Counted from the first letter of the stretch, positions 4,912 through 5,504 are shown. The stretch is 23,719 nucleotides of DNA from a virus (IMGVR_UViG_2671180296_000011:1-23719), one strand, 5' to 3'. The notes: generated from the letters alone by a model not told the origin. Made by a program: numbers and translations.

Positions 4912-5076
4912 TTAACTACCTGGCATGTCCTTTTTCACCAAAGGAAAAAGCACCACCACAATACCGACCACCAGCACTCCATCCGCCAGCACCGACATGA
5001 TCCTGCTGGTGAAATCCACCATCACCACCAGAAACAGCAGGAGTGCCACAGCGGCCAGACGCAGTTTTACCGTCAC
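4912..5076 (-). CDS. hypothetical 54-aa two-TM hydrophobic peptide, translationally coupled to upstream TerB-like gene
   Basis: Manual translation from GTG overlapping the upstream TGA (GTGA): VTVKLRLAAVALLLFLVVMVDFTSRIMSVLADGVLVVGIVVVLFPLVKKDMPGS. Not in the ORF track (under 60 aa, GTG start). Confidence 0.35.
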   Translation of the reverse strand: MTVKLRLAAVALLLFLVVMVDFTSRIMSVLADGVLVVGIVVVLFPLVKKDMPGS

Positions 5077-5504
5077 AGGTGGTTCTCCAGTCGCAGGCCA
5101 AGAACACCAGCAATCTCTTCCAGAACCTTACGCTCTTCCGGCTCAATTTCACCATCTGCTTCAGCAATGGCCACCGCCACATCCAGCACATCTTCCGCTT
5201 CACGCGAATCGTGTTTCACATCTTCAATTTCACGCAACGCTGCACGACGACCAATTTTAAAATTGGTGTCAAGCTGACCTGTGATCGTGGCACTGATGGC
5301 ATTAATTTCTGACGTAAATGCGGACAATGCTGGCTGGTTACGTAATACCTGTTCGATCTTCGCTTTCTCTGAAGTCTCACATTCACCATCTGCATAGGCC
5401 ACCAGGTAGGCAGCATTAATAACCGCCTGTGCCAGATCGCGTTTCTCAAACTTTTTAATTTCAGTTGCTGCTCTGCGGGTTTTCTTTTTGAAAATACCAA
5501 ACAT
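5073..5504 (-). CDS. TerB-like domain protein (tellurite-resistance TerB / DjlA-N-like fold)
   Basis: 143 aa with two repeats of the TerB-type pattern ...AAYLVAYADGECETSEKAKIEQVL... and ...VAVAIAEADGEIEPEERKVLEEIAGVLGL.... AAGGA RBS upstream. Confidence 0.5.
   Translation of the reverse strand: MFGIFKKKTRRAATEIKKFEKRDLAQAVINAAYLVAYADGECETSEKAKIEQVLRNQPALSAFTSEINAISATITGQLDTNFKIGRRAALREIEDVKHDSREAEDVLDVAVAIAEADGEIEPEERKVLEEIAGVLGLRLENHL

Follow-up and report, generated by a model that had tools for sequence, protein, structure and literature searches.

Two adjacent genes on the minus strand of a 23,719-nt stretch of viral DNA (the window, the whole stretch that was analysed) form the known phage accessory module tciA-tciB, which encodes a TerB-family protein and a small hydrophobic protein of the DUF3927 family. 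The module is a swappable cargo of the region Q - methylase - tRNA - cargo - sRNA - holin, and it lies at the position where Stx phages carry stxAB. A previous sequence-only reading of this DNA had implied that the pair was new. This was not the case, as the pair is already named in the records of phages P1 and P7 and in PHROGs, Pfam and RefSeq. The findings therefore carry little weight as a discovery: the genes, their pairing and their names were already catalogued, and the proteins are widespread in E. coli. What the analysis adds is the base-pair position of the module, its conservation and constraint, and a tentative view of what it may do.

Position of tciAB in the late region

Gene annotation of the window gave the order RusA, Q, two ORFs without a family match, methylase, tRNAs, tciA, tciB, sRNA and holin, followed on the 3' side of the holin by a 213-aa ORF without assignment, a lysozyme gene and Rz (Table 1). 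The pair had been placed past the tRNAs, where late antiterminated transcription would reach it, and the annotation agrees with this: the pair follows Q and the tRNAs and is on the strand of the late operon. The coordinates given earlier for both ORFs were also right, the strand being the minus strand. A strong terminator had been described ahead of the lysis cassette. Such a terminator is present, but it closes the STnc100-family sRNA gene that separates tciB from the holin and is not simply the terminator of the module itself. None of the genes terZ, A, C, D or E was found at the tciAB locus, where the neighbours are tRNAs, a DNA methylase, DUF3927, the sRNA and the holin. No hydrophobic ORF that could represent a tciC-like third gene was found 3' of tciB; the next ORF past tciB has 38 aa, a TTG start and a GRAVY of -0.42, and it overlaps the STnc100 sRNA.

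Table 1. Features of the tciAB locus and its surroundings, with positions counted along the window.
Feature	Position	Strand	Basis
RusA	9710..9330	minus	
Q antiterminator	9333..8512	minus	Pfam PF03589, 166 bits
Two terminator-like hairpins just downstream of Q	8478..8462 and 8431..8412	minus	Terminator scan
N6/N4 DNA methylase	7030..5972	minus	
tRNA-Ile2 (CAT)	5856-5931	minus	ARAGORN, Rfam, PGAP of the 99.8%-identical locus (tRNA-Ile)
Degenerate tRNA	~5768-5848	minus	ARAGORN/Rfam; PGAP of the 99.8%-identical locus: tRNA-OTHER
tRNA-Arg (TCT)	5678-5754	minus	ARAGORN, Rfam, PGAP of the 99.8%-identical locus
Terminator-like hairpin after the last tRNA	5664..5647	minus	Terminator scan
Cargo cassette: tciAB with 125 bp upstream and 28 bp downstream	4884..5629	minus	blastn against Stx2 phage PA8
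tciA, 143-aa TerB-family protein, ATG start	5504..5073	minus	ORF and Pfam/PHROG
tciA/tciB coupling junction: GGAG Shine-Dalgarno motif (5088..5085) and GTGA overlap (5076..5073)	5088..5073	minus	Sequence reading
tciB, 54-aa DUF3927 hydrophobic protein, GTG start	5076..4912	minus	ORF, Pfam PF13064, PHROG 1470
STnc100-family sRNA between tciB and the holin	4846..4648	minus	Rfam RF02076, 148.7 bits (gathering score 47)
3' hairpin and U-tract of the sRNA	4658-4679	minus	Fold energy -19.6 kcal/mol, z = -4.06
S21-type class II holin, start of the lysis cassette, outside the module	4351..4136	minus	Pfam PF04971, 108.9 bits; PGAP 'class II holin'

The proposal that the pair sits in the stxAB slot was confirmed at base-pair resolution. 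In a blastn comparison with the Stx2 phage PA8, the flank at 5630-6082, which covers the tRNAs and the end of the methylase gene, was 92.8% identical and the flank at 4789-4883 was 96.9% identical. PA8 holds stx2AB between these two flanks, so that 4884-5629 of the window replaces a stx2AB segment of 1.3 kb. For the genomics of STEC this means that tciAB and stxAB are shown, at the base-pair level, to be alternative cargoes of one slot.

Neither a consensus scan nor an exact pattern search nor visual inspection revealed a sigma-70-like promoter at 4100-8700 of the coding strand, although a weak or regulated promoter could escape such searches. As regards the criteria used for morons, the consensus scan gave no promoter belonging to the pair, and the terminator downstream is that of the STnc100 sRNA. 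Q is encoded upstream of tciAB on the same strand (pR' was not located) and is presumed to drive read-through transcription across the pair. Given Q upstream and no recognisable promoter of its own, tciAB would be expressed mainly from Q-antiterminated late transcription after induction.

Database records were consistent in naming the pair. The names tciABC were reportedly given in the annotation of the P1 genome by Lobocka and colleagues in 2004. The record of phage JLK-2012 annotates the two genes as tciA and tciB, that of phage PPyecE_EH1910 calls the first gene a 'TciA/TerB-like protein', and the P7 record notes similarity to O157 prophage genes. RefSeq/PGAP uses 'tellurite resistance TerB family protein' and 'DUF3927 family protein', also for a locus that is 99.8% identical to the window. 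The 54-aa gene had been considered unannotated, which proved incorrect: PGAP annotates both genes, and the identical protein (P0001) is listed at NCBI as 'DUF3927 family protein' in 998 contigs. Matches to tciAB were detected in 1241 of 5426 complete E. coli genomes (~23%), with 790 of them near full-length and at most eight places per genome.

The two proteins, their coupling and their conservation

The assignment of the 143-aa protein to the TerB family, made earlier from the sequence, was upheld. TciA matched Pfam PF05099 with 60.7 bits (cut-off 24.4) over residues 26-138, and PHROG 632 (phrog_632, 'tellurite resistance') with E=2.7e-69. With phmmer it also matched the solved Klebsiella TerB 2JXU (E=9.6e-8, 35.7 bits, residues 14-137), and it has a TerB-like all-helical fold. 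Two acidic A-D-G-E..E motifs are present at residues 38-46 and 114-124. Among 25 homologues D39, G40 and E46 as well as D117, G118 and E124 were invariant or nearly so, and the motifs align with SDG...EEK and SDG...DEK of 2JXU. This duplicated D-G...E motif is proposed to be a ligand- or metal-binding site. Residues 1-22 form a polybasic amphipathic tail with +9/-2 charges, a hydrophobic moment of 0.5-0.65 and low pLDDT, and past this tail the protein is acidic. Weak but specific matches to DjlA (NCBIfam, 29 bits, residues 87-138) and to DUF533/YebE (25 bits) were below the family cut-offs, and TciA is therefore not a member of either family.

TciB matched Pfam DUF3927 (PF13064) with 59.5 bits against a cut-off of 25, with residues 6-52 covering positions 5-51 of the 53 in the profile, and PHROG 1470 (phrog_1470, 'TciB-like') with E=1.4e-24. 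No holin family was matched in Pfam or PHROGs. The hydropathy profile has two maxima, at residues ~7-20 and ~33-47, with cores of ~14 residues that are separated by the semi-polar segment DFTSRIMSVLADG. Both ends carry K/R, the C-terminus is charged and the overall GRAVY is 1.58. A topology with two transmembrane (TM) segments is predicted from this profile. When a frameshift-fused TciA-TciB chain was modelled with AF2, the TciB part was one long helix of low confidence (pLDDT 48-74). The motif D-F-T-S-x3-S-x3-D-G is conserved between the cores, and a W/F-P pair is conserved near the C-terminus; in the family alignment the conserved positions are R6, D21, F22, S28, D32, G33, W/F44 and P45. A phmmer search with TciB over 1.84 billion cluster representatives returned only 51 clusters at E<=1e-3, and the DUF3927 family is either small or too short for remote detection. 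With tblastn against the phage collection TciB gave no match, the likely cause being the low-complexity filter acting on a hydrophobic query. Homologues in phage loci were found instead by local ORF extraction and Pfam scans.

The stop of tciA and the start of tciB had been described as overlapping in GTGA, and this can be read directly from the DNA. The plus strand has tcac at 5073-5076, which is GTGA on the coding strand, so that the TGA of tciA and the GTG of tciB overlap by 4 nt. The GGAG Shine-Dalgarno motif is located inside the end of tciA, 8 nt upstream of the GTG. The junction CTGTGACGG was unchanged in six diverged E. coli/phage variants. TciB is translationally coupled to TciA, and both proteins are thus made together.

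Conservation of the pair was determined in 18 phage loci sampled over the whole range of TciA similarity. In 13 of them the start of a DUF3927-type hydrophobic ORF fell within -7 to +5 nt of the TerB stop. The paired loci were from lambdoid phages, P1, P7, the Erwinia and Salmonella jumbo Machinaviruses, an Actinobacillus phage, the N4-like phages Pollock and FSL SP-076, Pseudomonas phage ZY21 and Pantoea phage LIET2. Pfam scans backed the DUF3927 assignment in the sampled loci, with the jumbo-phage versions below the threshold at 14 bits. Pseudomonas phages AF and Zuri have a different single-TM protein of 67-73 aa at the position of tciB, indicating that a small membrane partner recurs even without DUF3927. 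A small membrane partner of the TerB gene was absent in three of the 18 sampled phages. The reverse lookup was done with four distant DUF3927 proteins (44-48% identity to TciB of the window) in public assemblies. A TerB gene was found directly upstream, with overlapping stop and start, in all five distinct contigs, and the context was phage-like. Distant homologues had equivalent overlaps or gaps of 1-5 nt, and the DUF3927 frame was kept beside TerB genes down to ~28% protein identity. Among the E. coli and phage variants dN/dS was 0.02-0.10 for tciA and 0.14-0.28 for tciB, and both genes are under purifying selection. The pairing goes well beyond a chance association, the 54-aa frame is conserved and constrained, and the description of the pair as a compact two-component module, offered by the sequence-only reading, is a fair one given the tight and conserved coupling to a small hydrophobic protein.

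Some natural arrangements were considered as further evidence and set aside. Two TerB-DUF3927 fusions (P0125 and P0187, ~97% identity) are frameshift read-throughs of the GTGA junction and do not indicate an interaction. The N-terminus of a third fusion (P0251) is unrelated; this protein is a chimera and does not count as Rosetta-stone evidence. One distant pair has an AIPR gene, SMC_N and a metallophosphatase nearby, which resembled a defence island. This reading was rejected because RNR, RecA, gp32 and DNA polymerase appear in the wider view; the setting is a replication module of a large phage.

Possible function of the module

In a CRISPRi screen tciA, tciB and tciC of P1 were dispensable for plaque formation (PMC10695390). 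About half of the P1-like phage-plasmids are without the tci operon, it is counted among their variable regions, and the authors call its relation to phage inhibition unclear (PMC9603915). Transcripts of P1 tciA, tciB and tciC have been reported during P1vir infection, and TciA peptides have been seen in P1 virion preparations. Our literature search for a tested phenotype of tciA/tciB or DUF3927 returned homology-based labels, the CRISPRi call, the transcripts and the virion peptides only.

Our preferred reading, to which we give slightly less than an even chance, is that the two proteins form a membrane-tethered TerB complex that acts at the inner membrane during lytic growth. TciB would be the inner-membrane anchor or partner of TciA, and the polybasic amphipathic N-terminal tail may help to hold TciA at the cytoplasmic face of this membrane. 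The acidic TerB domain probably binds a ligand or metal. Arranged in this way TciA and TciB would be a split version of the TM and TerB fusions known from DjlA and YebE, and of TerB with the membrane protein TerC. The complex may alter or monitor the inner membrane during lytic development of the phage. Its most likely role would be to exclude superinfecting phages or colicins, or to buffer envelope stress until lysis, and a benefit to the resting lysogen appears less likely. Consistent with a place at the membrane, TerB has been reported to be membrane-associated and proposed to be amphitropic. It also takes part in Bunzi, Shango and Dionysus, validated defence systems that are proposed to survey the membrane. 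Further points in favour of a membrane complex are the two hydrophobic segments of TciB with K/R at both ends, the charged amphipathic tail of TciA, its weak DjlA and DUF533/YebE matches, and the other small membrane protein that accompanies TerB in phages AF and Zuri. A role in the lytic cycle is favoured by the occurrence of the pair in virulent N4-like and jumbo phages, by its place behind the C1-repressed Pban promoters in P1, and by the P1vir transcripts and virion peptides. For phage Ter genes an action against superinfecting phages was suggested by Iyer et al. (PMC7824862). With the frameshift fusion P0125 as a proxy of the complex, AF2 modelling from an unpaired alignment gave no confident interface between TciA and TciB. 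Also weighing against this reading are the dispensability of the P1 genes for plaque formation, the many P1-like phage-plasmids (about half) that do without the operon, the three sampled TerB genes that stand without a small membrane partner, and the lack of a significant PADLOC match.

A more specific claim, which we consider possible but rather doubtful, is that tciAB is a minimal and self-contained membrane module, with TerB as a sensor or adaptor that is tethered by a 54-aa DUF3927 hairpin. During infection it would close the inner membrane to competitors, by superinfection or colicin exclusion, or blind host membrane surveillance based on TerB, in temperate and strictly lytic phages alike. 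If true, this would give the first defined function to the TerB domain and to DUF3927. A single late-operon slot would then also hold a toxin in Stx phages and, in exchange, a phage-conflict module in their Stx-negative relatives.

Blinding of the host can also be considered on its own, as counter-defence. TciB-held TerB would here mimic or titrate the TerB surveillance of the host (Bunzi, Shango, Dionysus, the Ter cluster) and block its activation. Homologues of host defence components are common in phages. The use of TerB domains in validated defence systems is in line with counter-defence, as is the fact that the neighbours of the pair in lytic phages are early or middle accessory genes. 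In one contig a pair of the tciAB type is found a few genes away from a Tad2-like anti-Thoeris gene, but this neighbour is a single case. Moreover, the search of PADLOC-DB v2 gave no significant defence match: the best model for TciA was PDC-S48 (E=0.0024, 15 bits) and TciB matched none, so TciA has no significant similarity to the defence TerB models of PADLOC. We regard counter-defence of this kind as improbable.

Lysogenic conversion was another alternative, and the one that the inherited annotation implies; tciAB would give the lysogen resistance to tellurite and/or colicins, or inhibit cell division, as the plasmid ter cluster does. TciA is a true TerB homologue and the slot does carry cargo that benefits the lysogen, such as stx. 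However, the name of the genes comes from homology only, the locus lacks the ter genes that would accompany terB (terZ, A, C, D, E), and the promoter searches gave nothing from which a repressed prophage could express the pair. The pair is also kept in strictly lytic N4-like and jumbo phages, where there is no lysogen to benefit. Its presence in these virulent phages argues for a role in the infection cycle and against a purely lysogenic-conversion role like that of Stx, and the probability that we give to lysogenic conversion is low.

We rate just as low the possibility that the pair is a toxin with its regulator, with TciB as a holin-like or depolarising protein and TciA as a cytoplasmic regulator, serving in lysis timing or as an abortive or addiction-type module. 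TciB is small and very hydrophobic and has a charged C-terminus, like holins and type I toxins; in lambdoid and Actinobacillus phages the pair immediately precedes the holin gene, and the tight 1:1 coupling resembles toxin-antitoxin layouts. On the other hand, TciB matches DUF3927 only and no holin or toxin family, the window has an S21 holin of its own, and the lysis genes of P1, N4-like and jumbo phages are a long way from the pair. The gene order, with the soluble protein first and the peptide second, and the strong purifying selection on both genes do not discriminate between the readings. Finally, that the 54-aa frame is a chance ORF beside a real TerB gene, as short hydrophobic ORFs with a GTG start and no confident AF2 fold might suggest, is excluded as far as comparative evidence goes, because the frame is conserved and constrained: it scores far above the DUF3927 cut-off, it persists beside highly diverged TerB genes with its Shine-Dalgarno motif and start overlap, its dN/dS is low, and TerB was directly upstream in every contig of the reverse lookup.

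We know of no defined biochemical activity for TerB domains, although the ter cluster and several validated defence systems contain them. The tciAB pair is the simplest conserved context for such a domain. It is easily cloned, and model phages (P1, lambdoids, N4-like) have it, which would make it a convenient entry to the action of TerB at the membrane.

Comparison with known systems

The closest known system is the tci operon of P1 and P7. Their TciA has the same length as the protein of the window, with an identity of 40.6% (P1) and 52% (P7), and P1 TciB is likewise a 54-aa DUF3927 protein (48% identity). The overlap of stop and start between tciA and tciB is the same in P1, tRNA genes adjoin the pair in both, and the P1 pair is accessory and non-essential, like the present pair. 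Two differences were seen. P1 has a third gene after tciB, tciC, encoding a single-TM protein of 35 aa, which is absent here. The P1 pair is downstream of the C1-repressed Pban promoters, in an interval that ends with ban, whereas here the Q-dependent late region of a lambdoid prophage holds the pair.

With the ter cluster (terZABCDE; Klebsiella TerB 2JXU; IncHI2 R478) TciA has the TerB family and fold in common, and both copies of the acidic DG...E motif of 2JXU are kept. The similarity to TerB of the cluster is only remote (35.7 bits), and the partner of TciA is a 54-aa DUF3927 peptide and not TerC.

DjlA and YebE (DUF533), both proteins of the inner membrane, combine a TM segment and a TerB-like domain in one polypeptide. 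The concept of a TerB domain positioned on the cytoplasmic side of this membrane would apply to them and to TciA alike. Their membrane part is fused, whereas in tciAB it is encoded by a separate gene, and TciA has no J-domain.

In Bunzi (BnzA), Shango (SngA) and Dionysus (DinB) a TerB domain is associated with membrane proteins, as is proposed for tciAB. The partners in these systems are a helicase, an ATPase or pore-forming toxins, as compared to a 54-aa peptide in tciAB. Unlike these systems, tciAB is encoded by phages, lytic phages included.

The stxAB genes of Stx-converting lambdoid phages occupy the identical slot, but their proteins and function are unrelated to those of tciAB. Directly 3' of the cargo there is an STnc100-type sRNA in the window, whereas many relatives have a nanS-p/esterase gene at this position.

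A breakpoint within tciB

Judged from sequence comparison, the 3' end of tciB contains a recombination breakpoint (window 4912-4960 versus 4143-4190 of L002, the phage PPyecE_EH1910 locus). Between the window and PPyecE_EH1910, tciA was identical at synonymous sites (dS=0), and tciB had a dS of 0.12 and a dN of 0.065. The TciB proteins end in …LFPLVKKDMPGS in the window and in …LWPVIKRNSLHNA in PPyecE_EH1910, a difference that fits their unlike downstream neighbours, which are the sRNA and holin genes in the window and a nanS-p-like esterase gene in PPyecE_EH1910.

tRNA genes in the vicinity of tciAB

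In several unrelated phage lineages tciAB was found inside or adjoining tRNA gene clusters (loci L001, L003, L004, L005, L006, L017 and L021-L023 of the compared phages and prophages, and the window). The tRNAs concerned were Ile/Arg in the lambdoid loci, Asn/Thr/Gly in JLK-2012, Asn/Thr/Ile in P1/P7, Trp/Cys/Tyr/Gln/Ile/Met in the jumbo Machinavirus and Arg in Pseudomonas phage ZY21; in the remaining ~11 sampled lineages there was no nearby tRNA. The proximity could mean that the lineages share a hot-spot for insertion, that tciAB and the tRNA genes move as one cassette, or that the two are linked in function. The window also has a degenerate third tRNA, for which neither ARAGORN nor Rfam gave a call. 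PGAP lists it as 'tRNA-OTHER' in a 99.8%-identical locus, and an intact tRNA-Arg (TCG) occupies this position in the related prophage L021.

Features in the window and in compared phage loci
Feature	Location	Strand	Remark
213-aa ORF, between pinholin and lysozyme genes	window 3491-4132	-	no Pfam match
Esr41 (EHEC sRNA) match, sub-threshold	window 4492-4582	+	39.3 bits vs gathering score 102, E=4e-5
STnc100-family prophage sRNA gene	window 4648-4846	-	Rfam RF02076, 148.7 bits vs gathering score 47
Degenerate third tRNA, flanked by tRNA-Ile2 (CAT) and tRNA-Arg (TCT)	window ~5768-5848	-	
106-aa ORF, between Q and methylase	window 7181-7501	-	no Pfam match
239-aa ORF, between Q and methylase	window 7553-8272	-	no Pfam match
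sok antisense RNA	window 11776-11950	-	116 bits vs gathering score 59
DicF sRNA	window 18914-18965	+	73.8 bits vs 48
67-73-aa protein in place of DUF3927, 3' of TerB gene	L007 (phage AF) 1932-2153	+	
67-73-aa protein in place of DUF3927, 3' of TerB gene	L013 (phage Zuri) 1943-2146	+	
TerB-DUF3927 pair	L030 (metagenomic phage contig) 6262-6939	+	

Small proteins encoded next to phage TerB

The 67-73-aa protein of Pseudomonas phages AF and Zuri matched no Pfam family. It has a single N-terminal TM segment and the conserved motif C-x-WYG[YW]QTERET[RK]YA-FVGCMV, and could serve phage TerB as a membrane partner in place of DUF3927. In the public record of Zuri (L013 1501-2146) the TerB gene is mislabelled 'dCTP deaminase' and its small partner 'tellurite resistance protein'. 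The TciB homologue of phage ZY21 was entered as a truncated 39-aa CDS; the full ORF (L017 986-1174) is 62-aa, starts 3 nt past the TerB stop and matches DUF3927 with 33.5 bits. In the metagenomic contig, a single case, a Tad2-like (anti-Thoeris) gene lies ~2 kb downstream of the TerB-DUF3927 pair in an early accessory region.

Small RNA genes and the Stx2 phage junction

Elsewhere in the window, DicF and sok, an antisense RNA belonging to a hok/sok-type toxin system, were detected; the P1 annotation also places a 'dicF-like region' upstream of the tRNA and tciABC genes. The sub-threshold Esr41 match falls in the interval from the STnc100 sRNA to the holin, on the strand opposed to the late operon. 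An STnc100-family sRNA gene separates tciB from the holin gene, and the terminator noticed here by the sequence-only reading was recognized as its 3' hairpin (4658-4679). The 5' part of this sRNA overlaps a block 97% identical to the sequence immediately 3' of stx2B in the Stx2 phage PA8.
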